A stretch of DNA of 64,000 nucleotides, from NCBI GenBank assembly GCA_000004985.1, contig GG738887.1, one strand, 5' to 3'. How positions within the stretch are numbered: the stretch's first letter is position 1; every line of letters starts with the position of its first letter. The translations under genes and the position numbers were made by a program. Positions 114 to 52,369 of the stretch are shown here, one piece after another. The notes under the pieces are model-generated. The model worked only from the letters and a program-made list of their open reading frames with translations, ran no database searches and had not been told where the DNA came from. This DNA comes from Naegleria gruberi. Its lineage: Eukaryota.

Positions 114-726
114 ATCAAAAGAGTTTAGTTTGGGTGAGTTAGTTTGTGTGTAAACCGACGAGAGAACAAAGCTTTAAGCTTTTTTGTTTTTTTTAGAATG
201 GACAAGAAAAATTGCTTGATTTTGGTTATTTTCCAGTATTATCAAGTGGAACCAAGATGGAACACATGAAGAAGAGCATTTCATTGTTTCAATATGAATG
301 ATAAAAATAATAATATTTTGTGGTGGGAATGAAGAATGAACAATTCACTAGGAGGGAGAAAACAAATTAGTGAAGAGTTGTAAAATTTGTTAATCTCAAT
401 TCCGACTACTTTGTTGCATAGTGTTTGTGAACAAAATATTAAGGCGTTTAAAATATAAATAAAAAATGCTGTATTAATGTTTTCGTGATTGAAAACACTT
501 CAATGAGGTATAGAAAAATAATCTCGGAATGTACAGCATGATAATCATACAGGTAATCATTAACCTTATTTAATAACAAAAAATATATTGTTTGATTGTG
601 GATGGCCATTACATTAATAAATCAAGATCTTGTTGATTTCAGCTTCAGTTTGACCTTCATCTCGTGTCCAATATCAATCATCAATCACCAAATATTTTTC
701 TAAACATCAAAAAAAAAACATTAGGA

Positions 727-3700
727 ATGTGTAAGTAATTAACAACCCTAACATCAGTCATTAATCACCCAATAATCAAATAATCCATCCTGTTGATTAG
801 CAAGTGATATTAAAGGAACATTGACCAAGATTAAAGGTGGTAGTGTTCAAAATCGTTTGGCAGCCATTGGTGCTTTATTTTCTTTAGCATCAGATGATGA
901 TATTAGAGAGGAAATTAGAAATATGGGAGGAATTGGTACTCTTGTTGGATGTTTAGAGGATAATTCTGATCCACGTATTCCTAGACAAGCCTGTGGTGCT
1001 CTCTTGTAAGTTTTTTATTACCAACTAATTTACTTACATAATAATTATTTAATATTATAATTATAATAATTATTAATTGAATGATGATTGTTTATTTATA
1101 TTATATCTATCTAGAAACATGGCAAATGATGATCAATGTAGAGAGGAAATTCGTGATTATGGTGGTGTTGAATTGATGCTCAAGCTTATTGAAAATCAAT
1201 TCAAAGATGCAACCAGTGTTGAATATGCTACAGGTGCCTTGCTAAATTTGAGCTCTGACGATGACACTAGAGAAATGGTTAGAGAAGCTGATGGTGCTCG
1301 TATTTTGGCTCGTTGCTTGTCTGATGCTCCAAGTGAAGAATCTAGAAGAAACTCTGTTGGTGCCATTGCTCAATTGTGCTTTGATCAAGAATTTACTAAA
1401 CAATTGGTTTCTGGAGATGCTTTGAAACACATTGTTGAATGTTTAAACTCAAGTGATGAAGAAACCAGAAACAGGACCTCAGGTTGTATCTGGAATTTGA
1501 GTGTTACTGCTGATGAAACTAGAGAAGCTTTGGCTCGTGAAGGTTGTTTGGAAAGTTTGGTCAATTTATTGCAAAAAAGTGAGGATGTTAATGAAGATCC
1601 TGAAACTGTTGGTAATTGTGTAATGTAAGTTTTATATAATTATATAGAAATATTCTAATTTTAACATTTTACAATAATTACTATTGCACTACATTATATT
1701 GTCAAATGTATGATGTTTAAACAGGTGTCTTTCAATTTTAAGTTCAAATGACATGGTTGCTGAAACTTTACGTGAAATGGACGGATGTTTCGAAATGATT
1801 ATTAAATTATTGAGTAATTCTGATTCTACTATTGCTCAAAATGCTGCGGCTGCCGTTTGGAATTTGGCTCACAATGATGATAACAAGAAGGTTTTGGCCA
1901 ATTTGGACACAATGGCATCTTTGATTCCACTTTTGGATTCTTTCAACTCTGCTTCCGATTGGGAAGCTTTGGAAAAAGTTTTGGGTGCTGTTTTAACTAG
2001 CAGTACCAATGACAATATGGCTGATCAATTCCGTGAAAATTCTGGATTTGGTCCACTCAAGACAATCATTGAAGGCAAGGTTGATCCAACCACTATTCAA
2101 AATGACCAACATAAGAAGTGTGTATTATATGGTATTATTGGATTTGCCGTTTTGGCTTACAATGATAAGAATAAGGATGAGATTCGTGAATGTGGAGCTA
2201 TTGCTGACTTGATTGAATTACTTTCTTTGGAGTATGATGACGATTTACTTGAAAAGGTTACTGCAGCCATTTTGAACTTGACTCACAATATTGAAAATAG
2301 AACAGCCATTCGTAAGCTTGACGGTATTTCAGTTCTTATTGAGCTTCTCTACCATCACAATGAAACCATCTCAATGAACTCTGCTGGTTGTTTGTGGAAT
2401 TTGAGTAACGACGAGGCTTGTAAAGCAGTTATTCGATCTTTGGGTGGTTTAAAGCCATTGTTAGCTTTGATTGGAGGTGGCAAGGTTGAACCACGTTCAA
2501 AGAAGGACAGAAAGATTTCAAAGGAAGCTATTGAAGCTGCCAATCGTCTTGTTGAAGGTGAAGAAGAAGAATCTGAACCAGTTCCAGAAGAAAAATTCGA
2601 TGTTATGGAATTTGTTGAAGACATCTTCAATCCAAAGAAGGACTTTGAAAAGTTGGACGATGAGGATGGATCTTCTGATAAGAAGAAACCTCAAGTCAAC
2701 AGAAATGGTGAACAAAGAACCACTACTGGTGCTGGTGTTGAATATGGTGAAGAAACTGGCATGACTCCTGCCAAGATCATTGTTGGTGCTGCTCGTATCG
2801 ATATTAAGAACAGAAGAAAGGTTGCAGAGGCCGAACGTGAAAAGAAGGAGGCAGAAGAAAGAGAAGCCAGAAGAAAGGAACGTGAAGAAAGAGAACGTGA
2901 AAGAAAACGTAAGGAAGAAGAAGAAAAGAAGAGAAAGGAAGAGGAGGAAAAGAAGAGACAAAAGGAAGAGGAGGAGAGAAAGAAGAAACTTGAAGCCGAA
3001 ATGAAAAAGAAGGCTGAAGAGGAAGCTGAAAAGGAAAGACTCCGTTTGCTTGCTGAAGCTGAACAAACAAAGAATCAACTTAAGGAAGCTTTCAATGCCA
3101 AACACAAGAGAAAGGGTGTTAAGGATGAAGACATTGATTGGGATGAAATCTATGAAGATGGATTCACTCCTTCTGCTACTAAGGATGAAGCCAAGGACAA
3201 GTTGGAAGGTCAAATTGATGAATATTCCAATCTCATTGACCCATTCAATAATAATGGTGTTTATGATCAACTCACTCCTGATGATATCAAATTCATTGAA
3301 AGTGAAATTGAAAGAGCTAAACGTTTCCTCGCTGAAAATCCAAATGCTACCAAGGAACAAATTGATGATGCCAGAAGAGAACTTGATGCCAATGTCAAAC
3401 CAATCATTGAAAGAGCTAAGGCCAGAAAGGTTCTTGGCGACATGACCACCAGCATCAGAGATCGTCTCTTGAATGACTCTGAATTGTTGAACAATTTGAC
3501 TCCTGAAGAAAGAAAGGAATTAGAACAAGCTGTTGCTGAAATGGAACAATGGTTACGTGACCATCCAGATGCTACCAAGGAAGAAATTGAAGAAAAGGAA
3601 CGTGAATTGCTTGCCAAGATTAAGCCAATTTTGGCTCGTGCTGCTACCAGAAATGATTTGGAAAATTATGCTCATGATTTGAGAAAGAAGGCAGCCAATG

Positions 3701-6700
3701 AAGATGATGACATTGATTTTGACTTGTTGGGTGATGAAGATAAGGGTACTTTCCATGATGCTATCAAGGAAATTGAAGATTTCTTACTTGAACATCCAAA
3801 TGCCTCTGCTCAAGATATTGAGGACAAGAAGGATGAAGTCAAGAGGCGCATTGATCCAATCATTAAGAAGGCCAAGGCCAAGAAGGATCTCTTACAATAT
3901 GCTGCTGACATGAGAGATAGATTGAACAATGATCATGATTTGAAGAAGAGACTCACTCCAGAAGAAAAGAGATCTATTGAAACTGCTTTGGATGACTTTG
4001 ACAAGTGGATTAAAAACCATCCAAATGCTGATGCTGAAAGCTTGAACAAGCAAAAACAAAGACTCAAACAAAAGTTGGATCCAATCGTTTCCAGAGCTGA
4101 TGCTCACAACAACTTGGACGAATACATCAACAGAACAAGAAAGAGAATTGATGATAATGATGATTTGGGTGAATTGTTGGATGATGCTGACAAGAGAACT
4201 CTTCAAAAGGAATTGAAGGATGCTGAAGAATTCTTGAAGAAGGTCGAAAAGGAACCAGTCAAATTCACTGCTGAAGAAATCGACAACAAGAAGAAGGAAA
4301 TCAAGGAAAAGCTTGCCCCTCTTATTGAAAAGGCTGAAAAGAGAAGAGAACTCAAGGACTATGCCAGCCAAATTCGTGACATTGCAAGCAATGATAATGA
4401 ACTTGCTGAATTTATCACACCAAAGGAAAGAAAGTTGCTCGAAAATGAGGCTAAGGAACTTTCTGACTGGGTAAAAAACAATAAGAAGGCCACTCCTCAA
4501 CAAGTTGAAGAGAGAAGAAAGAAGGCTGAAGAAAAGGTTCAACCAATCTTGGATAATGCCAATCAAAGAAAGGCTCTCAAGGAAACTGTTCAAAGATTGA
4601 GAGATCGTTTGAATGATGACAAGTATGTCGAAAAGTTGAAACCAGAAGAAAAGAAGGCTCTCAAGGATGCTGCTGATGAATTGGCCAACTTTTTGGCTAA
4701 GAATCCAGAAGCTTCTGCCAAGGAAATTGAACAACAAAGAGAAAAGACCAATGAAAAGGTTCTTCCAATCTTGGACAGAGTTAGAGAACAAATCTCACTC
4801 GAAAATCATGTTAACAATGTTAGAGATAAGGTTAGAGATGATCCAGCATTGAACAAATTCTTATCTGATAAGGAGAAGAAGGCCATTGAAAAGGCTGCTC
4901 AAGATGTTGAAAAAGTCCTTGCTAGTAAACCATCCATTAAGGATACCAAGAAGGCAAGAGAAGATTTCAATGATGCTGTCAAGCCTCTCCTTGAAAATGC
5001 TGCTGCTAGATCTAAACTTGCAATCTATGGTGATAAGGTTTTGGATGATGTCTTGTCTGATCCACATACAAGTGATAAGGATAAGGAAGCTGTCAAGAAG
5101 GCAAAGAAGGAATTGATTGATGACTTTTTGGCTAAGAATCCAGATGCCACTAAGGAACAACTTGATCAACAAAGAAAGAAGTTCGATGAAGCTGTTGCTC
5201 CAATCACTGATCGTATTAATAAGAAGAAGGAATTGGAAAGAAAGATCAATGATATCAAGAGAAAGTTGGATGATCCAGATTCTGCAATCTGTTCAAAGGC
5301 AACCCCAGAAGAAAGACAATATTTGGCCTCAAAGGTTGATGAATTGTCTAAATTCTTGAAGGAAAATCCAAATGCCTCTGCTAAACAATTGGAAGAAAAG
5401 ATTAACGAATTCAACTCTCAAGTCGAACCAATTGCCAAGACATGCGAAAAGAGAGACCAATTAGAAAAGCAAGCAAACACTATCAGAGACAGATTAGTTG
5501 ATCCAAATGACGATCTCAACAAGTATATGAGTGAATCTGAGAAGACTCAACTCAGAGACGCTACCAATGAAGCTCTTCGTTTCTTGGAAAAGAATCCATC
5601 TTGCTCATCCTCAGAAGTTGCTCAAGCCAAGAAGAAATTGGACGATAAGACCAAGGAATTGGTTGAAAAGGCCAAGGCTAAGGGTGGTTTGTATAAGAGA
5701 GCTGGTGGACTTCTTTCTGATGTTAACAATTATGGTGAAGGCGGTCTTGGAGGTAAATTGAACAGTGTTGAAAAGAGCGAAATTGCTGATAAATGCAATG
5801 ATATCATCAATCACTTGAACAAGAATCCAAACCTCTCAACCAAGCAAATCAAGGAAAAGGAGAAGGAACTCAACAAGGTTGTTGCTCCAATTCTTGATAA
5901 GATCAGAGAAAGAGACAATCTCCGTGAAATTATTAATGGTATTCGTGATCAAATCTTCAATATTGATGATAAACTTGAAGATGACAAGTCAGATGCTTCC
6001 TCTGATTCTGACAGTGATCGTGAAGATTTGGAAGATTTATTGGATGGACCAATCAAGAAGTCTAAGGCTCAAAGAGATGAAAAGGGTAAGACCGACAAGT
6101 TGGGTAACTTCTTGTCCAACGAGGAAAAGAAGAAGATTGACGAAACTACCAAACAAGCATTGCAAGCTATTGATTCTGATCCAAATCTTTCAGTCTCTGA
6201 CTTGAAGGAACAAGCAAGAAACCTCAAGCAAGACACTGAAAATATCTTGAAGGCTGCCAAGACCAGATCTGATCTCAACGACTATTTGAATAACATTCGT
6301 GAACAAGTCAAGGATGAAGATGGTATGATTGCTAATCACTTGAGTGAAAAGGATAAGAAGTTGATTGATGAAACTATTAATGAAGCACTCAACTGGTTGA
6401 ATAAGGAAGGTGCTAATGCTACACCAGAAGCCGTTGAAAAGAAGAAGAAACAAGTTATGGACAAGATTGATCCAGTCATTCGTAATGCCAAGCAAAGAGG
6501 TGAATTGGAATCAATTGCTAACAAGGTTAAGCAACGTTTAGAAGATGATGTTGATTTGACATCAGCTCTCAGTGAAAAGGACAAGAAGGCATTACATGAT
6601 GAAGTTCAAGAAATTCTTGATTTCTTGAAGAAGAATCCTAATGCTACTCCTGAACAAATTCAACAAAAGAAGAAGCAATTCGAGGAAAGAGTTCTTCCAA

Positions 6701-10566: not shown

Positions 10567-13513
10567 TTACAAAAGCTTGGTGAGCTTATCGAATCTTGGA
10601 GGATCATTTGGATCTGTACGTTTTTGAATTTCTTTCTGAATAACTACTAAATCTGAAGATGCTCTATTTTTGACAATTTCGTTTCTGAATATTTCTGGAG
10701 AACGATTATTGATTTGTTCGAATGCCTCACAAATTTTGTCAATGAGCATATCATAAACTCGTTTGGAATACTTTTTCTGTTCAAATTGATCAGAACTAAG
10801 GAAGGTGCTCGAACCCAATGTTCTATAAACACTATTGGCTTGCTTGCACATGGTAATGAATGGTGTTGGATTCTTATCATTTACATTAGTCCAATTATAA
10901 TTTGGAATTTCAGATAGTTGGTATTTGAGAGCATCACCCAGAATTGAGACAATCTTTTCGAAAATAGCAATTCTGTGCTCTAGTAAATCAGTTATAAAAT
11001 CTCCAAATTTGACAAGTTGCTTCTTCTGACCCTCTTGAAGTGCTGTTTCAATCTTGGATTGAATGTAAGGCATCAAGAGAATCAAATAATGCAAACAATC
11101 AGAGGCCAGGATTAAATGTTTTGGTGTTATACTTGTGATGGCACTATTGACCTCTCTTGCCTTGGCCATGAGTACCAATTCTTTGAGTTCTGAATTGTAA
11201 ACTTGCAATAATTGCAAAATTCTTCCATGAAGATCAATTGCACTAATAAATGAAAAATCGTTTGATAATAGCTGAGAATATTGATAGATAAACTTGAGTA
11301 GGCAGAGAGCACTGGTAGATAATTTGAATTTGATACCATTGGCTAAAATATAAGATGATTTGTCTTCTTCTGCAGTCTTGGCATTCTTCTGGGAGGTAGT
11401 AGAGGCAGGAACAGTTGTTGGAGGAGGTAAAGACATGGCTTGAGCTTCACCAGTCAATAGGAATGCACACTTTTGATACTTTTCAGGAATGGATGGCACG
11501 GCTTCCCAAGTATCTCTGGCAAGTCTCTTCTTTAATCTTTGGACATAAGTGGTGTGGAAATCATCCAAAAATACCTGTCCATGATGTTGTAATTTTCCTT
11601 TCAGTATGGTACATTTCTTATAAACCATACTGTCTGATTTGGTGATGAATTTACTACCTGTAGCCATGTATGTGGAAAATAGAGTTGGTGAAAATTTGGA
11701 AATGACCTTATCAATACCAGAGCAAAAGTTTGAAAGTTGTTGTTGAGTACTCTCGTGCATGAAGGATTGAATTTTGGCAACTTCACGGCCTAGGTTTTTC
11801 AGTTTTACAGTATTAATGATAATCTTGTCGGTACTGGAATCGGCTTTCTCATTTTCTTCTTTGCAAAATTGATCCACAGCAAAGCAAAAATCTGTAAATC
11901 TCTGGAGTTTAATTAGGGCTAATGAAACAATGGAATCAAACTGAATTTAAATGTGTCATCAAGGCAAATGTTACAAAATTACTTACACTCTTACACCATG
12001 AATCTGCCAAATCTTTGGTCACTTCGGTGGAGGGTGTGAAAACTGGTGGCTTGATCGATTTCATCAGCTCTTCAGTCTCTGAAGGTACTAGCTTTTTGGC
12101 ATGAGCCATTACAGGTACTGCAAGATTTCTGTATAGAGTGGCTTTCAATAATGAAGCGAGTTTAGTGTTCCAATCTGAAGAAGTCGTATCCTTTTGAAGT
12201 ATTTCAGCTATTAATTCCGAAATTTCTTGTTTGATTGTCATGTCGATTACACCTAATTCAACTTCAATTTCTTTTGGTATGTGCTTTAGGCAGTTAACAT
12301 TGCTCAGTTCACTGTGTTCCTGAAGAGTAGATTCAATAGTATTGATAATTTCAAGGGCTGATAAGACGTCCCCTCTATTTGCAACCATAACCTTGACAGC
12401 AGTCAGACTTTGTTGAATAGAATCAATCAAGACAATATACTCCAATGTCTTGGTTAGATTTTGCTTTTTTCTTACAAGATTACCAACTTCCAAAGGTTTC
12501 AAAACAGCATTCTCCTCATATTTCTTAATTTTAGATCTTAAAGATCCAACTAGAGGTATAGAGCTGATCAGTGTTTCATACAGATCATTGTATTGCATCA
12601 TGGAATCGAAAATTTCACTGGATCTCTTATTGACCTGAGTTTGAACTTGGTTTTCAACCTGATCCAGATAATAACTCAATTTCTCCTGCAAGAGTAGTGA
12701 TGCAGATTCATTCTCCGAGCTAAAAACCTTATTGAAATAAGTTGGTGTTGAAAGTTCAAAATTTTCATCAAAAAAGTAGGCAGGTACGCCCTCTCTCCTT
12801 GACATGTAATCCACAATGTTAAGATTACTTGTTAAACTCTTTTCCGATTTGTGTGGCACCAACTTTGTCATTTCTCGATTAAATGTTTCTATTAATTGAA
12901 TATATTCTTTAAAACTATCAATATTAATAGAATCTCCGAATGTTGGTGAAATTGTTGATGGTGATGTTGTTACATTTCTATTATTTACATTCTTTACTTT
13001 CGGGTTTTTCACAAAACACGATTCTACATTTACATCTTCAAATTTTCTAGCATCAACATTTGCAATTGCTTTAAAATCCTCATCCGTCAAATCATGAATT
13101 TCCATTAATTGTTTTTCCAATAATTCAGCCGATGTTAATGAAGTAGCACTATTCAATGAAGAACTACTACTTGATCCAAACCATGATGAAAACAGTGTTG
13201 ATAAACTTGGTGATGAATTATTCAAAGCCTTCGGATCATTCAAAACCGATGAAAAATCCATGTTATTATATGAAGTAAATGATGAGTAATACTTGTTAAT
13301 ACGATCTCTCGGTGCTATATTTTGAAACTCTTCTTCCATCCTCGTTAAACGTTCTCTTGCTGATGGCGTTGATATAAAACTGGGCAAACTCTCATCTTCT
13401 GTATTGTTGTTGCTTCCTGCTGTTGTTGTTTTGTTAGTCTTCACTGTTTGGACGCTGAGAATTTCTATTGAAAAATCATCATCATCCGATTCTATTTTTC
13501 GTTTATTTTCCAT
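10567..13513 (-). CDS. vps54: VPS54 (GARP complex subunit) homolog, about 966 aa; complement(join(10567..11940,11987..13513))
   Basis: Exon 1 ends ...TGT AAG AGT with a GTAAGT donor (+ strand acttac at 11981-11986). The acceptor is ttcag (+ strand ctgaa 11941-11945), giving a 46-nt phase-0 intron. The track's second ORF 'start' is an in-frame GTG. Segments LLLQEKLSYYLDQVENQVQ...SLRSKI and SVLNDPKALN match my recall of human VPS54 LLQEKLSHYLDIVEVNIAHQISLRSEAF and ALNDPRL; the C-terminal half is also collinear. Confidence 0.75.
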
Positions 13514-13676
13514 GTTATTATTATTATTAGTATTGTTGTTGTTAATTTATTATATGATGAATTGATGTTAGTGAAGAGAGTTTTTGTTGTTGAATATTTT
13601 TGATATTTTTTTTTAATGATGAAAAATTATTGTAATCAAATTAACAATTTTTAATATTATTTAATTTGTTACAATT

Positions 13677-14882
13677 TTATTTAAATATTTTTATAGAGTG
13701 ATTGTTTTCATCGGCAACCAAGAGTTGACCATTCTGATCGTCTATTGTTAAGCCGAATGGACAATACAATGGTCCGAATGAACCGTACGATCTAACAAGT
13801 TTGAGTCTTTCGTCTTTCTGTGGGCCGACTAATCCTGAACTATTCCATTCGAAGGCTAAAATTCGATTTTTGAGTGGACTTGAAACTATAATCTTTTCAG
13901 GTCTCAGAGTATTCTCCCTACTCTTATCAATGCAGATTCCTAGTGGACAGATTCCAAACAGATCTGAAGAATTTACCGAATCTTGATCATCATTTAGAAA
14001 TCCTTCTGGGATGAAGGAGCAAACGAGTTCTAATTGAGAAGGATTTGAGGATGATTCTCTTAGAATCTTAATGGAGCCGTTCCAATATTCTGAAATGATT
14101 AGTTCACCAGCAAGAGAAAAGTCAATCATCCAAGGCTCATGCAAATGACTCGTTTCGAATAAAGGTTGTGATGAGATAATTCCAGGAGGAGATTTTAAAG
14201 GAAATGAAAAGGAAGAAATGGAACGAATGAAACTACCATCTAAGGAACTTAATATGACAATTCTATTATGTCCACTATCACAGACGTACACTTGTTTGTT
14301 TCTTACTGAGATTCCAATAGGATAATAAAACTCAAGTGCTGAATCGACTAAAGAATTGGCTGCATCTTCTTGTGAAGGTTGTTGAATGGCAGTTTCCACA
14401 TCAGAAGCAAGATCTATTTCGTCCAAATTCAATTCTTGTCTCACTTGACGAAAGTTCTTTGCCTTCTCTCCTCTTTCCCATAGTTTCGTATATTTTACAT
14501 CATCTAACATGAGCCAAATTCTCAATTTGCACACTTTTGTAAAACTCAAAGTGATGAACAAGTTGTCAAAATCGTCTTCATCCACAGCTAGGCATTGTGG
14601 ACTTTCGTCCAACTCTATCGAATAGAGAAACATTTTTGTAAATAAATTGAAAAGTGCAATTTTTCGATTTCCAAAATCACTCACAAACACAATTCCCATC
14701 TGATATGAAATTTTCACATCTTTCGGATAAGAAAATCTATAAGAATCCGAATCTTCTTGACCTAAAGAATGAATTTGTTCGAAATTTGCAGAAAATGAAA
14801 TTCTATTTCGTTGATTTGAAGATAATTTATCTCTAAGCATTGGTTGCAGAGGTAGAAAGTCAGAGAGATGGAGTGTTGTCAT
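13677..14882 (-). CDS. NHL-repeat beta-propeller protein (401 aa)
   Basis: Repeated NHL-type blades are visible (VCDSGHNRIVILS, QLLVADENNHSIKIFK). The start is aaagaaATG. It is a paralog of the gene at 32055..33080. Confidence 0.65.
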   Translation of the reverse strand: MTTLHLSDFLPLQPMLRDKLSSNQRNRISFSANFEQIHSLGQEDSDSYRFSYPKDVKISYQMGIVFVSDFGNRKIALFNLFTKMFLYSIELDESPQCLAVDEDDFDNLFITLSFTKVCKLRIWLMLDDVKYTKLWERGEKAKNFRQVRQELNLDEIDLASDVETAIQQPSQEDAANSLVDSALEFYYPIGISVRNKQVYVCDSGHNRIVILSSLDGSFIRSISSFSFPLKSPPGIISSQPLFETSHLHEPWMIDFSLAGELIISEYWNGSIKILRESSSNPSQLELVCSFIPEGFLNDDQDSVNSSDLFGICPLGICIDKSRENTLRPEKIIVSSPLKNRILAFEWNSSGLVGPQKDERLKLVRSYGSFGPLYCPFGLTIDDQNGQLLVADENNHSIKIFK

Positions 14883-15145
14883 TTCTTTTAACTGTTTTTT
14901 GGTTTTTAATTTTTTTTGGTTGCCTTTTTTAGATTGTCAAAGTCAACAATTATTCGAAACCATTCGTCTACAGCTTTACAGTAGTTAAATGTTACAATAA
15001 TGTTGGGTAAAAAGCAAATTGGTACAATTTCCATAATGTAAAAAGTTATTCGAAACTTCGCTGACATCAAAAACGAACCTTTCACATTGTAAACTTTAGA
15101 TTTTTAACATTTCACCTGTCTGGCAGGATATTTCACAATAAAAAA

Positions 15146-16863
15146 ATGTCTCAACCAACAGATAAGAGATTGTGCTTTCTAACAGCATCAGAAATGTTAG
15201 AAAGGTTTCGTTCACTTTCCCTCTCTCCAAAAGATGTAATTCTCGATGTTTTGAATAGAATTGAACAATTAAATGATCGTGCCAATGCTTACTGTTACGT
15301 TGAAAAGAGAGAAACTTTGATCAAATTGGCAGAAGAATCCGAAGGTAAGTTTATTCGAAAATTCTATTCGAAAGATCTAAAAAAATCAGCAAGATATCAA
15401 AAGAATATTGCACTTCCAATGGATGGTATCCCAATTTCTGTCAAGGATTTATTCATGGTCAAGGGAATGCCATCTTTCTTTGGTTCGAAAGCTTACTCCA
15501 CTCAACGTCAAGAAGATTTTGACAGGAAAAATAACACAACACAAGATGAAAGAGCTCTCATTGATGTAATCGATTCTCCAAGTGTTGAACATGCTAGAAA
15601 TGCTGGTTGTATCATTTTGGGTAAAGTAACTAGTCCAGAATTTGGATGGCAAGGTGTCACTCTTTCACCAATGACAGGTGTCACGCCAAATCCTTTTAAT
15701 TTCAAATTGAGTGGAGGTGGAAGTTCAGGAGGAAGTAATTGTGTCATGTTGGGAATGGGGCCTTTGAGCATTGGATCAGATGGAGCTGGAAGTGCTAGAA
15801 TTCCTTGTGCATTTTCAAATGTTTCGTCTATTAAGGTGAGTTTCTAATATTGTCAAGAGTTTAAAATTTTATGGATTTTATTGGAAAGGCAACTGTTTCT
15901 GTAGTGCCACACTATCCAGCTTCTCCATTAGGAACTTTGGCTAACGTGTGTCCTATGGCTACAACCATTCGAGATGCCGCACTATTTTTGGATATCATAG
16001 GACAACCACATCCTTCAGATCCGTTATCGATTCATCCTTCCAGATTTGAAAATGCAAACGATTATCATGATTTCAAAGATTCTTCCCATGAAAAGAGAAA
16101 ATTCTCCACTCAACTCGATACTGGAATTAAGGGTTTGAGAATTGGTTTGAATTTCTCCCTCTCAACCTATTGTGATCCTAAAATTGAGGAATCTGTTAGA
16201 AAGGCAGCCAAAATATTGGAAAATCTTGGAGCTATCGTTGAGGAAGTTCCACTTCTCCCATTCCAAAAGGAGAAGCTTGATGTTTTTGGAACATTTAAGA
16301 TTTTGTGGTGTACGGGATGTAAGGCAATGGTAGAGAAGAGGATTCGTCCAGAGTATCGTCACTTGGTTGATCCAAATTTGATGGATGCTGCCTCGAGAGG
16401 AGAGAAATATAGTGCCTATGATTTTATTAGCTCTGAAATGGTGAGAACGACCATGTCTTCCCTAATGAATACTCAATTCTTTAATAGATATGATCTATTG
16501 ATTACACCAACACTTCCAATTACTCCTTTTGAAGCTCATTTGGAAACAATTCCAGATGAAAATATTCGAAAGCTCTTGTGTGGATTTGGTAATTCAACCA
16601 ACACAATTATGAAACCATCTGATTCTCCATTCTTTGAGGAAGAATATGATCCAATGAGATGGTGGATGTTCTGTCAATATACATATCCATTCAATTTGAT
16701 GAAATTACCCGCTTCAAACGTTCCATGTGATAAATATGTTGGCTTGCAAGTGATTGGACCTGAGTATGGAGAAAGTTTAGTCTTACGTGTTGCTAATGAA
16801 TTTCAAAAGAGTATTGATTTGGAATTCTTGAAAGATTTATCAAAGAATACCTTCACTGATTAA
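15146..16863 (+). CDS. Amidase-signature family enzyme (FAAH/GatA-like), about 554 aa; join(15146..15835,15889..16863)
   Basis: The amidase signature GGSSGGS...GSDGAGSARIPCAF is present. A GTGAGT donor at 15836 and acceptor aaag at 15885-15888 keep frame (...SSIK|ATVSVVPHYP...DAALFLDIIG). The start is aaaaaaATG. Confidence 0.8.
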
Positions 16864-16927
16864 TAAAATGAGGCAACTAAAAACTTTTAATCCATTGTAA
16901 TATTTTCATAGTCTTATTTTCTTTTAT

Positions 16928-18253
16928 TTAACAAAGCATGGAAGGATTATCAAATGCCTCAACACAAGAATACCTACTGAGGTTTGCATTTTCCTTGACC
17001 CAATTATGAAGCATTGTAATGAAGGGAAACACACAGGTAGAACTTCTTGTAGGAGCTGCCAGAATTTGAATCATTCTAATCAAGTGCTCAATCTGTAAAT
17101 GCTCAAAACCAAGATAATCAATGAGACAGTGAAAAATTGATTTTTCAGCTGGTGAGTAGGGTGTTTGTGTGATGAAGGAGAAATCATATGTAAATTCCTC
17201 ATTATTCATGGAAAATATTGGCTCTTTCTGTCTTCTAAAGATACAAATTTTTGTTTCGTCCTCAAAGGCCTCAGCTAATTGAGGATATTCTTCTTGAATT
17301 TTTGGATAGGTACATTCCAGTGAAAAATCCGAATGATTCACAGAGTATTGGCTTCTCAATTCCAAGCAACAAATATTTCCATTCAATCCCTTAATGGAGA
17401 TGGATGAATGATGGTGCTTGACTGCCAAGTCTTGATCAATTCTCACCGATTCTATCACTGTATGATTATAGAAATAGTCAATCTCATTAATTATTGTGGA
17501 GAGTGGTAATTTCTTCTCATGAGGCACATAGTATACACTTTGATAATTTGCAATATTTCTCGTATAGAGAGTACTGGCATATTTACATTGTTCCAAGTGA
17601 TTTTTCCAATCCTCTCCTTTCTGAATATAATTCTTGTACAATTTAAAATCGTGGAATGCATTCTTTCGATGTCTCAATAAATTCACAATTGATCGTTCCA
17701 TCTCCAAAGCAATATTTTTCGATCCCTCAATCTCATAATACAGCATGGCCAGATTTAACTTGTCTGATTCTGATAAATTTCTTCTCCATTCATTCTTCAA
17801 ACTTGAAACCCATAATAATTCATTCACATCTCCATTGTAAAATCCAAGAAAGATATCTCGATGCAAATACAAGAATCTCCAATCTAAATCTCTCCTCTTC
17901 CAAACAACATTATTAGAAAATTCAGAAAATTGCTCCGAATGGAATTCATGCCTCTCGAATGAACCTTTAAATTCAATCCATTGTCTTTCTAATTGTGTTA
18001 CAACAAAATCCTTCCAATATAATTCCTTCCATAATAATTGAGCATAATTTTGATAAGTCTGAGCATGATGATGATGATCGGAAGAATTTGAACAAGTAAT
18101 TAATTCATTCCAAAATTTTGAAACTCTTCTCCATCGTTCCAATTCCTTAGCATCATCCGTAATGAAGAGAAGAATATGAATGATTACATCCTCCTTGCCA
18201 GGAGAGAAGAGTAATGCACATGGATCGGAATATTTACAAATATGTGGAAGCAT
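16928..18253 (-). CDS. F-box-like protein (441 aa), otherwise uncharacterised
   Basis: The N-terminal DVIIHILLFITDDAKELERWRRVSKFWNELI fits the F-box pattern (I..IL.....D...L.R.VSK.W..LI). Single ORF; the start is gaaaaaaATG. Confidence 0.5.
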   Translation of the reverse strand: MLPHICKYSDPCALLFSPGKEDVIIHILLFITDDAKELERWRRVSKFWNELITCSNSSDHHHHAQTYQNYAQLLWKELYWKDFVVTQLERQWIEFKGSFERHEFHSEQFSEFSNNVVWKRRDLDWRFLYLHRDIFLGFYNGDVNELLWVSSLKNEWRRNLSESDKLNLAMLYYEIEGSKNIALEMERSIVNLLRHRKNAFHDFKLYKNYIQKGEDWKNHLEQCKYASTLYTRNIANYQSVYYVPHEKKLPLSTIINEIDYFYNHTVIESVRIDQDLAVKHHHSSISIKGLNGNICCLELRSQYSVNHSDFSLECTYPKIQEEYPQLAEAFEDETKICIFRRQKEPIFSMNNEEFTYDFSFITQTPYSPAEKSIFHCLIDYLGFEHLQIEHLIRMIQILAAPTRSSTCVFPFITMLHNWVKENANLSRYSCVEAFDNPSMLC

Positions 18254-18489
18254 TTTTTTCTAAAAAAATAAAATCTTATTTATCATATGCAAATTATTTA
18301 ATAATATTTTGATTTTTTATGTATAACTGAATCATTGGATTAAAATGATCAAGATTTATGCATAATTATAATAGAAGTTTATTGAACGAAAACTTCAGTC
18401 TTTTCAAAGATGGAAACTCCAAGTTTGGCAATAGAACTGGCACATCTATTAAATGTCGTGTTAAAAAGTGTAAAAATAATATTCGAAAC

Positions 18490-18846
18490 TTACTCTCCCT
18501 TCTTGACAACCTTTCCTTCTTTCAATCTTGAGGCAATAGTAACACCATCAATTTGAATCATTACCCACCAAATAACCCAGAATGGAAGAACACAAATACC
18601 AATGAAAACAAACATTAAAACAACAATCAAGAAGTAAAAGAAAATATTCAAGACAATATAGGTGATACCCTTTCCAGCCTGTAAAGAGAAAATAGTTTAG
18701 AATAGTTATGTACATTGTGTACTTACTTGTCCCATAACAATATGGCCAAGACCAAGGAAAAGGAAGTTCAATAAAAAGACCAAGATTGGTTCAATGTTGG
18801 TATTTGGCACTTGGTCGTCGCTGGCAATAGGTTGTTGTTGTTTCAT
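18490..18846 (-). CDS. Unlisted small two-exon gene for a 102-aa protein with 2-3 TM helices; complement(join(18490..18678,18727..18846))
   Basis: ATG at 18846. Exon 1 is MKQQQPIASDDQVPNTNIEPILVFLLNFLFLGLGHIVMGQ, then GTAAGT (+ strand acttac 18721-18726). Acceptor tttacag, then AGKGITYIVLNIFFYFLIVVLMFVFIGICVLPFWVIWWVMIQIDGVTIASRLKEGKVVKKGE and TAA. The intron is 48 nt and phase 0; codon usage looks host-like. It is not in the ORF track because each exon gives under 60 aa from its ATG. Confidence 0.5.
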
Positions 18847-47103: not shown

Positions 47104-48783
47104 TTAGTGCATGAGCAGAATGGCTGAATATTCGTGTTCACACCTTTCAAGAAATAATCTTTCTGAATAAATAGTAAAGAATCCATCAGATATAGAGGCT
47201 GCTCTTTGAATCTCTGGATCTGTTCTCAATTTCATAGAGAGTATGTTGATATTATTTCCTGTCTTCTTGACAAACTCCATGGCAAGCTCTTTATCTATCT
47301 CACCATAGTAATTATTTAAACCACCCCTTATAGCTGCAATCAATACATCTCGATCAGATGGAAATAAGTTACGCAACATTGAATAGTCAGAGCCCTTACG
47401 AATTAGTCCCTCAATTGCTAGCTCTTTATCCAATTGACCTGGATACAAAGCACGTAGATCTGATAAAGACAAGCCACTTCTTACAGCCTCTAAAGCAAAA
47501 TTTCTATTGGATAGTAATAGTGCTGGTGGCTCAGCATCTGGTGGACTTTCCAAAAAGTTGGGCATGTCTTTTGGAACAAACAATGCAACAGAACCATTTT
47601 GCTTGACAGCTGCCATAATAATTTCACTGTCTCTCGTTAAACGTGGAGAAACAAACTGATAGCAACATCCGTTCTGTTTGACAAGTTCCAAAACCACCTC
47701 TCTATCATCTTGCAATATTTTCATCAAGTGTAAATGCAGTGGATTGTCTCTGACAGCTGTCAATGCCAAATTTTTATCATTTAACAGATCTGGATGAGCA
47801 TAAGCATACATTTTTGCCTTAACCAAAATATCTACATCTGTTTTCAATCTGTAAGATGCATAATGATATGCTTGATTGTCATTCTCCAAGGCCAACAATA
47901 CAATTTCCTTGTTATCTTTAATTTCTTTCGAAGCATAATTGAGAGAAGTTCCTTTTCTAGTAATTGCCCTTGTTACCACTCTCAAATCCCCCTTCAGTTC
48001 TTGGCTTGCAAACTCGAGTGCATCTGGATTCTGATTAATTGCCAAGTTGACAATTTTCTTATTATTTTTCAATTCAACAGATGCATATTGCAAACCTTTT
48101 CCATAAACCTTTACAATTTCTGTAAGTACATCAGGATTCGATCCATAATTCTTTAAAATTTGATCCAAATACCTTGTATCTGTCCATTCCTTCACACTAA
48201 ACTCTCCTCTATTAAACAAATCCAAAACAAATGCAATATCCTCCTCTCCATACTTATTGTGCATAATTCCACTCAATTTTCCCTTTTCATTTGCAATATC
48301 ATTCAAATACTTTTCAAATCCCTCAACACTTCTCAATTGTCCATAATCTTTCAAACTGGGATTATAAATCTTCCTCATAATTGCTCTCATCACCAAAGCA
48401 TCTCTCAAAACCTCTCGAGGTAATATCTGAATAATTGTCTCTATCGATAACTTGACCAAATTCCTCATATAATCAATTACACAATCTCTGTGCTTCATAA
48501 ACTCAATCGGAATAAAATCATTATTTGTTTTAAATTCCTTCTTACGATCCAATCGGAGATGAATTCGTTGAAACCACTTGACTCTTCCTTTCTGTTGATT
48601 TTCAAATTTTGATTTTAATTTTAAATATAAATGATGAAGATGATCATGATGATGATTATTAATATTGGAATGATGATCGGAGAGAATTAGAATGACAGCA
48701 TCACGATGATGATAAGAAGCAGGAGGAGCAGTTGCTTTTGTACCTTTTCTAATTGTTGTTTTTTTGCTTTTGTTTGTAAGCAT
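47104..48783 (-). CDS. Protein made of DUF4116-like helical repeats (559 aa)
   Basis: A repeated pattern ...(V/I)L.A(V/I)..N..AL.(Y/F)AS.(E/R)LK.D.E(I/V)V..A... is visible (IVNLAINQNPDALEFASQELKGDLRVVTRA, IVLLALENDNQAYHYASYRLKTDVDILVKA, LALTAVRDNPLHL, VVLELVKQNGCCYQFVSPRLTRDSEIIMAAVKQNGSVALF). Confidence 0.5.
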   Translation of the reverse strand: MLTNKSKKTTIRKGTKATAPPASYHHRDAVILILSDHHSNINNHHHDHLHHLYLKLKSKFENQQKGRVKWFQRIHLRLDRKKEFKTNNDFIPIEFMKHRDCVIDYMRNLVKLSIETIIQILPREVLRDALVMRAIMRKIYNPSLKDYGQLRSVEGFEKYLNDIANEKGKLSGIMHNKYGEEDIAFVLDLFNRGEFSVKEWTDTRYLDQILKNYGSNPDVLTEIVKVYGKGLQYASVELKNNKKIVNLAINQNPDALEFASQELKGDLRVVTRAITRKGTSLNYASKEIKDNKEIVLLALENDNQAYHYASYRLKTDVDILVKAKMYAYAHPDLLNDKNLALTAVRDNPLHLHLMKILQDDREVVLELVKQNGCCYQFVSPRLTRDSEIIMAAVKQNGSVALFVPKDMPNFLESPPDAEPPALLLSNRNFALEAVRSGLSLSDLRALYPGQLDKELAIEGLIRKGSDYSMLRNLFPSDRDVLIAAIRGGLNNYYGEIDKELAMEFVKKTGNNINILSMKLRTDPEIQRAASISDGFFTIYSERLFLERCEHEYSAILLMH

Positions 48784-49025
48784 TAGTAATTAGTAAAAGA
48801 AAATTTGATTAAAGTATTGGCGGGAAAGTTAATGTAAAGATATTTTTTTTGTGAATGGTAAATATCCCGCTAAACACTTACTGTCAAAGCGTGCTGGTAC
48901 TTTGACGATTTTGCGTCAAGCTATTTTCGTCAAACAAGCGAAAAGTTGTCTTAGCAGGAGGGAACTTGGAAATTTTTCCAATTTCAAATAACAAATAAAT
49001 TTCCAAGTCAATAAATTTCAATTTA

Positions 49026-50001
49026 TTAAAAGTTTTGATATGCATAATAATGCACAGGAATATATTTCTCTTCATCAGGGAGTTTGACAACAACACATGG
49101 GAGCATTTCAAATGCTTCACTTCTACTAATCTCCCTTGTCTTATTGGTGGTGTTGGAAATTAAGGTAATCTCATTAAAATCTTTTGAGAAAGATGCCACT
49201 TTGAAAACTTCGTTCGTTTTGATATCCTTGATACAATCTAATTCCTTTCTTACAACGTAGTGACCAACTATACATTCAGAGGCAATAAGAGGTTCATTTA
49301 AATCCATTAAATCACATAATTGGCACATATCAAAGTACATGATTGAATATCGAGCAGAATTTGAACAAACGTAAGTCTTTGAGAGTGTGAAATTGAGTCC
49401 TTCTCCAATAAAAGCAGAATTTACACCAAGAGGGCCGTACATTCTACAAGAATTGACTAACTCAGTACAAATATGAAAGTTTGGTGTTGCTTTCTTTTCT
49501 CCAACCACTTTCTGATAATCAATTAACACTTGAAACAATTCAACCTCAATGTCTCCTAATTTGGATAACTGAAATGAGTCTGTCAGCTTATCAATTATAG
49601 AGGCAAATCTATGAATTATTTCAACCTTTGATTCTATTTCCTTAAATCCTTCGATATGTGTAAACAGCTCTAAATAATGATGACAGATCATGTAAATTTC
49701 AATTGCCTTTAGACTGTTCATAATCTGGCCATTTGTGGTCTTTCTAGGATGCTTGTGAAGGAATGATGGATACTTTTATTTCAGAAACAATGTCAAATCT
49801 TTCCCAGTATTGAACTGGGATCATTTTCATCATTTCTTGGAAAACTCCTTCATATAATACATGCATTGAATCATAGCAACAAATATCTGATGGTGATGGA
49901 TTCCAATCTTGATCCAAAATTGGTGAAATTGATTTCAACCCTTGATCAAAATTCCCTTTTTGAATGTGATTTTTCCAATACTCTTTATCTCTAAAGGTGC
50001 A
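49026..50001 (-). pseudogene. Frameshifted transposase-like ORF (Tnp2 / DUF4218-like motif C.D.MH..YEG), probably a decayed mobile-element gene
   Basis: Two minus-strand ORFs (49744..50001 and 49026..49721) overlap in alternate frames across about 30 nt, so a single +/-1 shift joins them. The motif CCYDSMHVLYEGVFQEMM resembles the conserved CLD.MH.EKN block of En/Spm Tnp2-family transposases. The region is gene-poor and flanked by TGACG-motif clusters. Confidence 0.3.
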
Positions 50002-50035
50002 AGATTAATTGTATCATATTTAGGGTGTATTCTTA

Positions 50036-50650
50036 TTGGGTATCGAGTTTGTTTCAAAGATTTTGAATTTTCTTTGGTTGATTCTATATCAACACTTTAC
50101 AGATTCTGAACCACTTGTTCAGTTTTCAAGTCAGAAATCTACAAGCAAGCCAAAGTCTTCTACCAAGAATGCTTCTTCTTACAATGAACCTTCCAACAAG
50201 AAGGCTTCTTCAAGCAATGATGATTCAAATGAAGTTCCGGAATCATTTGCAAATTCTGCATTTTTGAAACACTATAATGATTTAGTTGATGAGAATGAAA
50301 GAATTAAGAAAGAATTGGCTAGATATAAACAGGCAGTCAGAAATATGAATGAAATGATTAATCAAATGGTGAGCTGTTTAGATGAGTATCAAGATGTCTT
50401 TGCATTGGGAGACTCTATTGTGCATCATGATGATAAAACCATTGTGCTCACCCATAAAGAGATAGCAAAGATTTGTGAATTAGGTGAGAAAACCTCTCAA
50501 ATCATACATGTTTGCTCAACCTACTTTGAAAAGTCAATTACAAAGCACAACCAAGATGAAAGAAAGCTATTGTTTAAGATAATATTTGATGCAATGGGTT
50601 GGAAAATAAGCAAACACAAGAACAAACTCAGTAAATACAGAGGTCTTTAG
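50036..50650 (+). CDS. Hypothetical protein (about 204 aa), possibly part of the same decayed element or a truncated gene
   Basis: ORF with a low-complexity S/K-rich start, then a predicted helical region. A charged tail continues in another frame (50651..50848). No family recognised. Confidence 0.25.
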   Translation: MGIEFVSKILNFLWLILYQHFTDSEPLVQFSSQKSTSKPKSSTKNASSYNEPSNKKASSSNDDSNEVPESFANSAFLKHYNDLVDENERIKKELARYKQAVRNMNEMINQMVSCLDEYQDVFALGDSIVHHDDKTIVLTHKEIAKICELGEKTSQIIHVCSTYFEKSITKHNQDERKLLFKIIFDAMGWKISKHKNKLSKYRGL

Positions 50651-51439
50651 TTCAATTGCAAGCAACCTTAAGAAAAAGAAGGGTGCAAAACAAAATGAAT
50701 CAGTAAAGAAGAAGAAGACAGAACTTGAGGAGACCACCTCAAAAAAGAGAAAAGAAAGAGAGGAAAACAATGATTCTGGATCATCCTCTTGTGAGGAAGA
50801 AACCATTGAAGAGGATTCCACTGATGATATGAGTGATGATGAATGTTGATTGTAAAATGTTGGGTTACTAAATCGTTATTTTTAATAAAAAAATGTCTAC
50901 ACATCAACTCCCTCATCATATCATACAAAACTGTCGGTTAGTACTACAACATTATTTTTACTACAATTTAAAATCATCAGTTTTATTGTTTATTGGTTTG
51001 TTGTATTTAAATTTCTTAATTTCTTAATTTTTTAATTATTGTTGTTAGTTGGATTTATAAAGATTTTATTCTTCGAAATTGGTTTGTTGTATTATTTTCA
51101 TATTATATGATTTTACCTGCTACGGATCATCAAAATTATTCATCACAAGAAATTAGGTAATTTGTTATAATTCAATTTGTGCTAAACAGCACGATTTATA
51201 TGCAAGCAACAATGTAAGTAATTTTGATTTATTATCATTAATTTTGAATGTAACTGAAGAGGTGAGTGATATTTCATCAGTTGGAGTGAGGATGAGGAGT
51301 GTAGATATTTTTTTCGGTTGGAAATTTGGAATGGAAGTGGATCTAATAATAGATGAGTTTGGAACTTGGAAATTTTACAAGATTTTGTAGTAAATAATTG
51401 CTGGAATTTAGTCAATAATTGACAATAATTATTATGAAT

Positions 51440-51720
51440 TTTTTGACGTAATTATTGATGTTTTTTCATCAATATTTGATACAAAACATTATTGATTTAT
51501 TATCAATTTTTGACGTCAAAAATTGATAATAAATCATTAAGAATTGACGATAATTCTTGACGTCAATTGCGCGTTAATTTGGAATTTTTCTCCCAACACT
51601 TGTTGACGATTTTATTATGCTTTAAGCATCAATTTTTAACATTTTTCAATAAACTTTATTTCATAATTTTGCAATCTGATACGTTAAAATTTGACGAAAA
51701 AATTGTTAAAATTATCATCA
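51440..51720. repeat. Cluster of TTGACG / TGACGTCA motifs including a 44-nt perfect palindrome (51493..51536) and a second TGACGTCA palindrome at 51558..51565
   Basis: The palindrome tgatttattatcaatttttgacgtcaaaaattgataataaatca reads identically on both strands. Nearby are tttgacgtaatt, attgacgataattcttgacgtcaattg, tgttgacgatttt and aatttgacgaaaaaatt. A similar TGACG cluster (ctttgacgattttgcgtcaagctattttcgtcaaac) lies at about 48900-48940, on the other flank of the TE-like ORFs. Confidence 0.6.
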
Positions 51721-51808
51721 AAATAATTTAGCGGGTATTTATTGTAATGCGTTTGAAAAATGATCAAATGTATCACGTTTCCAATATTGTTCAACTTTCC
51801 AATAAAAA

Positions 51809-52369
51809 ATGGACGAATCAACACCTCTCTATAATTTCGGAAATTCTGTGGAAAAAGATGAACGTTCGGAAGATGATGATATTGTCATTCAATTCGTTCA
51901 ATTAATTTCATGTTTATTACTTTCATGTTTTACATTATTTGATTTAGTTTTGGGGATTTGGGGAAGTGTAATTTTTGGAATCTATTCGAAAGGGTCCAAT
52001 CTGATAGATCCAGAGCCATGTAATATGACAACTGCCACTGCTTTAATAATGACATGCTCTGTGTGTTATTTCTCATTCTTTATTTTCAAGATTAGTTTAG
52101 TTTGTTGTCATTGTTTCGGATGTAGAAAGAAAAGGATTTATCTTGTACCAAGCATTTGTTTCTTCTACATTCCTTGTTTAATAATTAATGGAATTTCGTG
52201 TACGATCTTGGCATTCATTGGTGGAAATAGAAAATGTCAAGAAATTCATGTTCAGGAATTCGCATTTTCCATAACAAGCGTAATTCTAATGTCTCTAATT
52301 ATATGTATATGGACTTGTCAAAATTGTTTATTGGGTGGATGTAAATTAGTTGCCGCTAACGAGGATTAA
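51809..52369 (+). CDS. Cys-rich four-TM membrane protein (186 aa), family not recognised
   Basis: The start is aaaaaATG. Four hydrophobic helices are LISCLLLSCFTLFDLVLGIWGSVIFGIY, ATALIMTCSVCYFSFFIFKISLVCC, IYLVPSICFFYIPCLIINGISCTILAFIGG and FAFSITSVILMSLIICIWTC. Confidence 0.5.
   Translation: MDESTPLYNFGNSVEKDERSEDDDIVIQFVQLISCLLLSCFTLFDLVLGIWGSVIFGIYSKGSNLIDPEPCNMTTATALIMTCSVCYFSFFIFKISLVCCHCFGCRKKRIYLVPSICFFYIPCLIINGISCTILAFIGGNRKCQEIHVQEFAFSITSVILMSLIICIWTCQNCLLGGCKLVAANED

Follow-up and report, generated by a model that had tools for sequence, protein, structure and literature searches.

A decayed, non-autonomous DNA transposon copy with CCCGC termini in Naegleria gruberi and its probable place among the CACTA-Mirage-Chapaev transposons

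Transposases of the CMC/CMCT clade (CACTA-Mirage-Chapaev, Tnp2-like) have a D-D-E, C(2)C and H(3-4)H layout, most CMCT members end in 5'-CA..TG-3', and a link between CMC elements, Transib and RAG1 has been published (PMC12730594). For Naegleria, the only transposons mentioned in the literature are Kolobok (PMC9587614) and MuDRF (PMC3164196); no CMC-type element of this genus was found described in the full-text literature, a search that did not cover Repbase. Here we analyzed a 64-kb stretch of Naegleria gruberi DNA (contig GG738887.1), called the window below and the basis of all element coordinates, and within it the 2.9-kb, seemingly gene-less gap between a DUF4116 gene and a four-transmembrane (4-TM) gene. 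The segment 48866-51735 in this gap is an ordinary decayed transposon copy of a little-charted family. Very probably it is a dead, non-autonomous member of a Naegleria-specific family of cut-and-paste CMC/CMCT transposons. An earlier note, made from the sequence alone, had proposed a decayed DNA transposon with a Tnp2-like transposase at this place, which was borne out by homologues positive for Tnp2, DUF1258 and DUF4218 and by relatives at several loci of Naegleria lovaniensis. Its assumption of a dictyostelid host was mistaken: the host is N. gruberi (Heterolobosea), a 231-aa open reading frame (ORF) of the element, at 49026-49721, matches a 'predicted protein [Naegleria gruberi]' from a 508-kb scaffold with 100% identity, and the GC content of the window (~34%) fits.

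The limits of the element were set by inverted CCCGCT/AGCGGG tips, the counterparts of which are the ends of multi-copy N. lovaniensis elements. Each of the two hexamers occurs twice in the window, and the inward-facing pair, CCCGCT at 48866 and AGCGGG at 51730-51735, is located immediately outside two clusters of the hexamer TTGACG. Since the tips, the TTGACG offsets and the N. lovaniensis ends agree, the element was assigned to 48866-51735, with the following boundary features:

48866-51735, minus strand (that of the transposase remnant): whole element, 2,870 bp, internally deleted, non-autonomous
48866-48875, plus strand: terminal inverted repeat (TIR) on the transposase-gene side, CCCGCTAAAC, 9/10 positions equal to the other end
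51726-51735, minus strand: TIR on the accessory-gene side, ATTTAGCGGG, the reverse complement of CCCGCTAAAT
48863-48865, no strand: left flank TAT, possible target-site duplication, reading ...aaaTAT/CCCGCT (slash, element boundary)
51736-51738, no strand: right flank TAT, reading AGCGGG/TATtta
Putative pre-insertion (empty) site: ...GTGAATGGTAAA[TAT]TTATTGTAATGCG...

A check for inverted repeats and target duplications, as had been advised in the earlier note, hence yielded inverted tips (9/10) and TAT/TAT flanks, the latter a possible duplication of 3 bp or a degraded one of 2 bp. The E2F-like inverted pair described there at the left edge has to be read differently. Both members are present (ggcgggaaa, 48819-48827; tatcccgct, 48863-48871), but they match at only 7/9 positions and the second is the TIR tip itself; the true partner of the tip at 48866 is agcggg at 51730-51735, which replaces the E2F pairing. 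No further copies or fragments of the element were detected elsewhere in the window by tblastn.

Full-length relatives were found in N. lovaniensis. A 740-aa reconstruction of the transposase (gene B) retrieved the 751-aa protein P0004 with 40% identity over 96% coverage. In this first family, identical P0004 is encoded at three loci within a 5.9-kb block that is 99.5-99.9% identical between copies and has unrelated flanks; the block begins with CCCGCTACTC... and ends with ...GAGAAGCGGG, its TIR is CCCGCT[A/T]CTC and the flanking dinucleotides are AA/AA, TG/TG and GA/GA. The second family (P0152, 786 aa) occupies 7.06 kb at each of two loci, which are 100% identical over this block; its ends are CCCGCA... 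and ...GAAGCGGG (TIR CCCGCA/CCCGCT), and the flanks are AT/AT at one locus and AT/TT at the other. Target duplications of 2 bp (AA/AA, TG/TG, GA/GA, AT/AT) accompany four of these five insertions, and a 3-bp model fails in every N. lovaniensis copy. Judged by these sequences, the N. lovaniensis sister family looks still active. The full-length element measures ~5-7 kb, carries two divergently transcribed genes and is bounded by ~10-nt CCCGCT... inverted repeats, with TTRACG arrays at fixed distances from the tips.

Related ends were also present in L005, which has a CCCGC tip (CCCGCACAG), and in L009, one extra locus from a metagenome scan, where a relative at 193-5106 has the tips CCCGCTCCT together with TTCGTCAT motifs. 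In L008, like L009 a more distant relative from metagenome data, a TAACG array at ~5000-5163 closes with AACGGGG; L009 and L008 keep the two-gene layout, and the repeat varies. Within N. gruberi, a paralogue of the 231-aa ORF (P0002, 57% identity) survives as a C-terminal ORF on another scaffold, and NAEGRDRAFT_54699 (690 aa) is another member of the family.

Two structures at transposon copies were recorded besides. The right end of one family-2 copy contains a nested 422-bp insertion resembling a miniature inverted-repeat transposable element (L006, 10509-10930), with 12-nt inverted ends (TATGGCGGCGCA / TGCGCCGCCATA) and TTGACG motifs of its own; its sister L007 has 9 bp in its place. In L004, two genes at 12390-18837, one for an nSTAND/AAA ATPase (525 aa) and one for a short-chain dehydrogenase (327 aa), are duplicated in mirror image and flanked on both sides by inward-facing transposon right ends. 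The arrangement may have arisen by transposon-mediated inverted duplication or may be an artefact of assembly at the end of the contig.

The TTGACG clusters that had been reported at both ends of the gap are present:

48902-48933, no strand: small subterminal cluster, TTGACG-N6-CGTCAA-N8-CGTCAA
51443-51696, no strand: large subterminal cluster, 10 TTRACG/CGTYAA motifs including two TTGACGTCAA palindromes

Altogether, TTGACG/CGTCAA occurs 23 times in the window, 3 times in the small and 8 times in the large cluster. With a background of 12 in ~59 kb, 0.12 hexamers are expected in 600 bp, and 11 were observed within 300 bp of the element ends (Poisson P ~2e-18). For the broader motif TTRACG/CGTYAA the count is 13 within 300 bp of the ends and 0 in the element interior. 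Short subterminal repeats in both orientations, as at En/Spm-type ends, are hence present. Their spacing is shared between the species: counted from the tip on the transposase side, nt 37-42 are TTGACG and nt 49-54 are CGTYAA both in the window and in N. lovaniensis, and on the accessory side ttttttCGTCAA places CGTCAA at nt 40-45 from the tip in either. The larger array is on the accessory-gene side in both, with 15 motifs in 210 bp in N. lovaniensis compared with 10 in the window. Because these positions are kept despite a protein identity of only 40%, we argue that the motifs belong to the element as its binding sites rather than to host promoters, and the TTRACG arrays are accordingly predicted to be functional binding sites.

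The opposite view, raised already in the earlier note, would make the clusters (TGACG/TGACGTCA) host CRE/bZIP-like elements of a bidirectional DUF4116/4-TM promoter and the ORFs unrelated debris. The clusters indeed face divergent host genes with start codons at a distance of only 82 and 73 bp; TGACGTCA is the classic palindrome of CREs, and the exact 16-nt direct repeat at 48961/51361 inside the clusters first resembled an insertion boundary. However, the same arrays occur at the same tip offsets inside transposed blocks at five N. lovaniensis loci with unrelated neighbours, no such cluster was seen in other intergenic regions of the window, and the clusters are enclosed by matching inverted tips. 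With arrays inside a mobile unit in two species, the promoter explanation is already contradicted and extremely improbable.

The 16-nt repeat, GGAACTTGGAAATTTT at 48961-48976 and 51361-51376, lies inside the element; around it, the two subterminal regions resemble each other weakly, in direct orientation, over ~200 nt (local score 90 vs 49 +/- 6 for shuffled sequences). As an insertion boundary, with the TTGACG clusters as host promoter, it was ruled out by the N. lovaniensis ends and the outer CCCGC tips, and as a target duplication it was rejected as well. A 52-nt near-perfect palindrome (96%; 51489-51540), centred on TTGACGTCAA within the large array, may be a paired binding site or a hairpin.

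Between the arrays, the element consists of the 3' halves of two divergent genes, the transposase gene (gene B) and an accessory gene (gene A):

49026-50097, minus strand: transposase (gene B) remnant, C-terminal ~350 codons in three frames
49840-49881, minus strand: D-x-M-H....G block, CCYDSMHVLYEGVF; D475, M477, H478 and G483 (numbered as in P0004) show little or no variation in 64 relatives
49383-49490, minus strand: N-x-H-x3-(E) motif and predicted third catalytic residue (Glu of AFIGEGLNF), aligning with P0004 N604, H606 and E630
50097-50098, no strand: deletion junction, 2,059 bp lost, 1-nt microhomology
50099-50849, plus strand: accessory gene (gene A) remnant, C-terminal ~250 codons, frameshift near 50640
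50850-51442, no strand: AT-rich non-coding spacer (GC ~25%) from the accessory gene to the large repeat cluster

The gene B remnant aligned with P0004, P0152 and P0007 in tblastn at 39-53% identity (E 1e-62 to 1e-78). It comprises the two minus-strand ORFs of the earlier note, 49026-49721 (231 aa) and 49744-49938 (64 aa), and a third piece in another frame (49935-50057). The two ORFs are adjacent in different frames and do not overlap as had been stated there. The C.D.MH.L.EG block reported in the same place is the D-x-M-H....G block above, and the motifs at 49383-49490 align, in addition, with H(3)H and F-x-F-E, which are invariant in Tnp2-positive relatives. The short plus-strand ORF was likewise recovered (50036-50650, 204 aa); past the gene A frameshift, which is placed near 50640 by alignment with homologues, the frame runs on to a stop at 50849. 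The spacer corresponding to 50850-51442 is 1.7-1.9 kb long in N. lovaniensis.

Lesions were mapped against L001, a 5.5-kb ENA metagenome contig with a near-identical copy, which encodes a 98%-identical stretch from farther upstream in the same protein (P0003). In BLASTN, L001 319-734 corresponds to window 50529-50098 and L001 2794-3134 to window 50098-49761; because the alignment is split in this way, 2,059 bp must be missing at 50097/50098. Nucleotide identity to L001 is 98% for window 49761-50098 and 95% for the gene A remnant. The segment present in L001 and missing from the window holds the 5' halves of the two divergent genes and their shared intergenic region, and with it the catalytic D1, D2 and the CxxC; D.MH, N.H and the predicted Glu survive across broken frames. 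Gene B has further lost 1 nt near 49996 and 2 nt at 49791/49792 and has acquired a stop (CAA>TAA) at 49776-49778, two deletions and a stop where a single frameshift had been suggested. From its sequence, the window copy cannot encode an active transposase. Both its tips and its subterminal arrays are intact, and mobilisation in trans by an intact relative is at best conceivable.

On the reference contig itself, the transposon fragment stops abruptly at both sides (L001 1-318 and 3135-5519) and on one side abuts a BTB-domain gene and an HNH-like ORF; it represents either another copy, truncated differently, or an assembly chimera formed at a repeat.

The 231-aa ORF runs uninterrupted from an internal Met as far as the native stop, and it was annotated as a gene by the genome project, and its paralogue P0002 persists as a C-terminal ORF likewise. 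One might therefore take it for a domesticated transposase fragment with a host function, to which the rest of the element is irrelevant. Against this, the start codon is an internal Met just 3' of a frameshift and a stop, the promoter went with the central deletion, the ORF is without D1, D2 and CxxC, the TIRs and the accessory remnant decay alongside, and no orthologue outside a transposon context appeared in the searches made. Domestication is consequently a very unlikely explanation, and we regard the ORF as part of a dead transposon copy.

For classification, a profile built from the Naegleria proteins was run against a library of 1.84 billion representative proteins and gave 963 matches at E<=1e-3 and 126 at E<=1e-10. 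Among 64 sampled matches, Pfam identified Transposase_21 (Tnp2) in 52/64, DUF1258 in 52/64 and DUF4218 in 10/64, and when the Naegleria clade was compared by hhalign, profile to profile, with 31 Tnp2-positive proteins, the probability reached 100% (E 5.7e-59, 484 columns). Most family members go unrecognised by Pfam; the nearest direct Tnp2 scores were those of P0152 (27.7 bits, cut-off 28.6) and P0007 (E 0.006). The conserved columns are, in P0004 numbering, D301, D380, C398-x2-C401, D475-x-M-H478, N604-x-H606 and E630. AlphaFold modelling with the 64-sequence alignment gave a pLDDT of 79 and a pTM of 0.79 (pLDDT 38 with 5 sequences). In Foldseek against the PDB, significant matches of the model were confined to RAG1, amphioxus BbRAGL and HzTransib (E 2e-7 to 6e-4), and a sequence profile search of the PDB returned zinc-ribbon noise only. 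The predicted fold is hence RAG1/Transib-like, which fits the published CMC-Transib-RAG1 link. As modelled, the ~750-aa gene B product is a DDE transposase in which a zinc ribbon on the N-terminal side and a small beta-barrel on the C-terminal side flank a RAG1-like catalytic core.

Two further groups named in the earlier note, KDZ (Kyakuja-Dileera-Zisupton) and Plavaka, would place the element outside CMC. The D.MH and CxxC motifs are broadly shared, and one of the 64 distant relatives has a weak Plavaka match (4e-4). On the other hand, the KDZ model matches 0/64 relatives, Transposase_21 and DUF1258 are matched by 52/64, the Naegleria proteins match neither the KDZ nor the Plavaka model, and the structural neighbours are RAG1 and Transib. 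Plavaka is, moreover, now grouped with EnSpm in the CMCT clade (PMC12730594), which also counts against such an assignment. We give a KDZ or Plavaka affinity hardly any credence. The protein comparisons support membership in the wider CMC/CMCT (Tnp2-like) group, not in En/Spm proper. Of the CACTA-like character claimed earlier, the Tnp2-like transposase at superfamily level and the subterminal arrays stand, whereas CACTA termini are absent and the copy is mainly an internal-deletion derivative. As the termini are not CACTA, strict CACTA membership fails, and it probably fails on duplication length as well.

The gene A remnant is homologous to genes divergent from the transposase in N. lovaniensis, L005 and L008 (BLASTP E 6e-11). 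These homologues show weak, full-length similarity, are divergent from the adjoining transposase in each lineage examined and have a central coiled coil. Besides the coiled coil, gene A gave no domain match in Pfam or PDB, and the searches otherwise returned only the L001 fragment. Its product is a ~450-520-aa coiled-coil accessory protein and, by analogy to TnpA of En/Spm, a candidate reader of the subterminal repeats.

Several observations weigh against assigning the element to a Naegleria CMC/CMCT family. Neither the window remnant nor the 740-aa reconstruction nor P0004 has a Pfam transposase match, even at E<=1. The Naegleria clade has D/E in place of the second His of H(3-4)H, and instead of 5'-CA..TG-3' the termini of the window copy and of four related lineages read CCCGC..GCGGG. 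The evidence for target duplication is mixed: TAT/TAT in the window is 3 bp long and fails the 2-bp test, as do the family-2 copy with AT/TT and L009 (AG/TT). DNA evidence in N. gruberi comes from this locus only, that for multiple copies from N. lovaniensis, and which protein binds TTRACG is purely inferred.

With respect to the insertion site, the two host genes diverge from the element: on the minus strand, the DUF4116 gene (Pfam E 9e-58) has its ATG at 48783, and on the plus strand, the 4-TM gene has its own at 51809. The native DNA left between the element and the host start codons amounts to 82 bp (48784-48865) and 73 bp (51736-51808), and the element therefore split a divergent promoter region of ~155 bp. 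The GGCGGGAAA (E2F-like) motif at 48819-48827 is on the host side of the left boundary.

By homology to CMC, Transib and RAG1, the transposase, perhaps with the accessory protein, would bind the subterminal TTRACG motifs and pair both ends, the D-D-E site would cut at the CCCGC tips, and the element would reinsert via a 2-bp (perhaps 2-3 bp) staggered cut. The window copy inserted into the ~155-bp promoter region between the divergent host genes. The central 2,059 bp, with both promoters, both 5' halves, D1, D2 and CxxC, were then lost, and the frameshifts and the stop codon accumulated later, after the deletion. Possibly, the element ends with their CRE-like TGACGTCA palindromes, 73-82 bp from the two host starts, now act as promoters of those genes.

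The 2.9-kb gap is thereby explained, and one annotated N. gruberi 'predicted protein' can be flagged as a transposase pseudogene fragment. The data document a CMC-type, RAG1-like family in Heterolobosea with defined ends, candidate binding sites and apparently active N. lovaniensis copies, which helps to mask repeats and to annotate genes in Naegleria genomes and could provide candidate genetic tools and an outgroup-like sample for RAG1/Transib evolution. It is a tentative, somewhat doubtful suggestion that the copy is a fossil of an undescribed heterolobosean RAG1-like (CMC-clade) lineage still transposing in N. lovaniensis, marked by CCCGC termini and TTRACG arrays, by a zinc motif that has changed and by a divergent orphan gene with an accessory role. 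If true, this would supply a native Naegleria transposon tool and a deep-branching reference for the CMC-Transib-RAG1 radiation.

Compared with described CMC/CMCT elements, the transposases are homologous over ~480 residues and share the DDE layout with C(2)C between D2 and E as well as D.MH and N.H; subterminal arrays of short repeats and a second, accessory gene are common to both, and short target duplications (2-3 bp) probably are as well. The Naegleria elements differ in their termini (CCCGC..GCGGG vs CA(CTA)..TG), in the replacement of the second His by D/E, in scores below the Pfam thresholds, in an accessory gene that is a separate divergent orphan instead of a TnpA-type product, and in their heterolobosean host. 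Maize En/Spm (TnpA/TnpD) likewise combines a transposase with an accessory protein and has bidirectional motifs in subterminal regions of ~200-300 bp, and internal-deletion derivatives (dSpm-like) are common in it. In contrast to En/Spm, the Naegleria tips are CCCGCTAAAC and CCCGCTAAAT and not CACTA(G), the duplications in N. lovaniensis are of 2 bp instead of 3 bp, gene A has no sequence similarity to TnpA (no Pfam match), and the two genes are divergent instead of being alternative splice forms of one transcript. From RAG1, ProtoRAG (BbRAGL) and Transib there are these differences: sequence identity is only 9-12% with no match in the PDB sequence profile search, the Naegleria element is without a RAG2-like partner, the termini are unlike, and Transib duplications are of 5 bp. 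Towards Mirage there are indirect hints, namely the DUF1258 matches among the distant relatives and the 2-bp duplications in N. lovaniensis.

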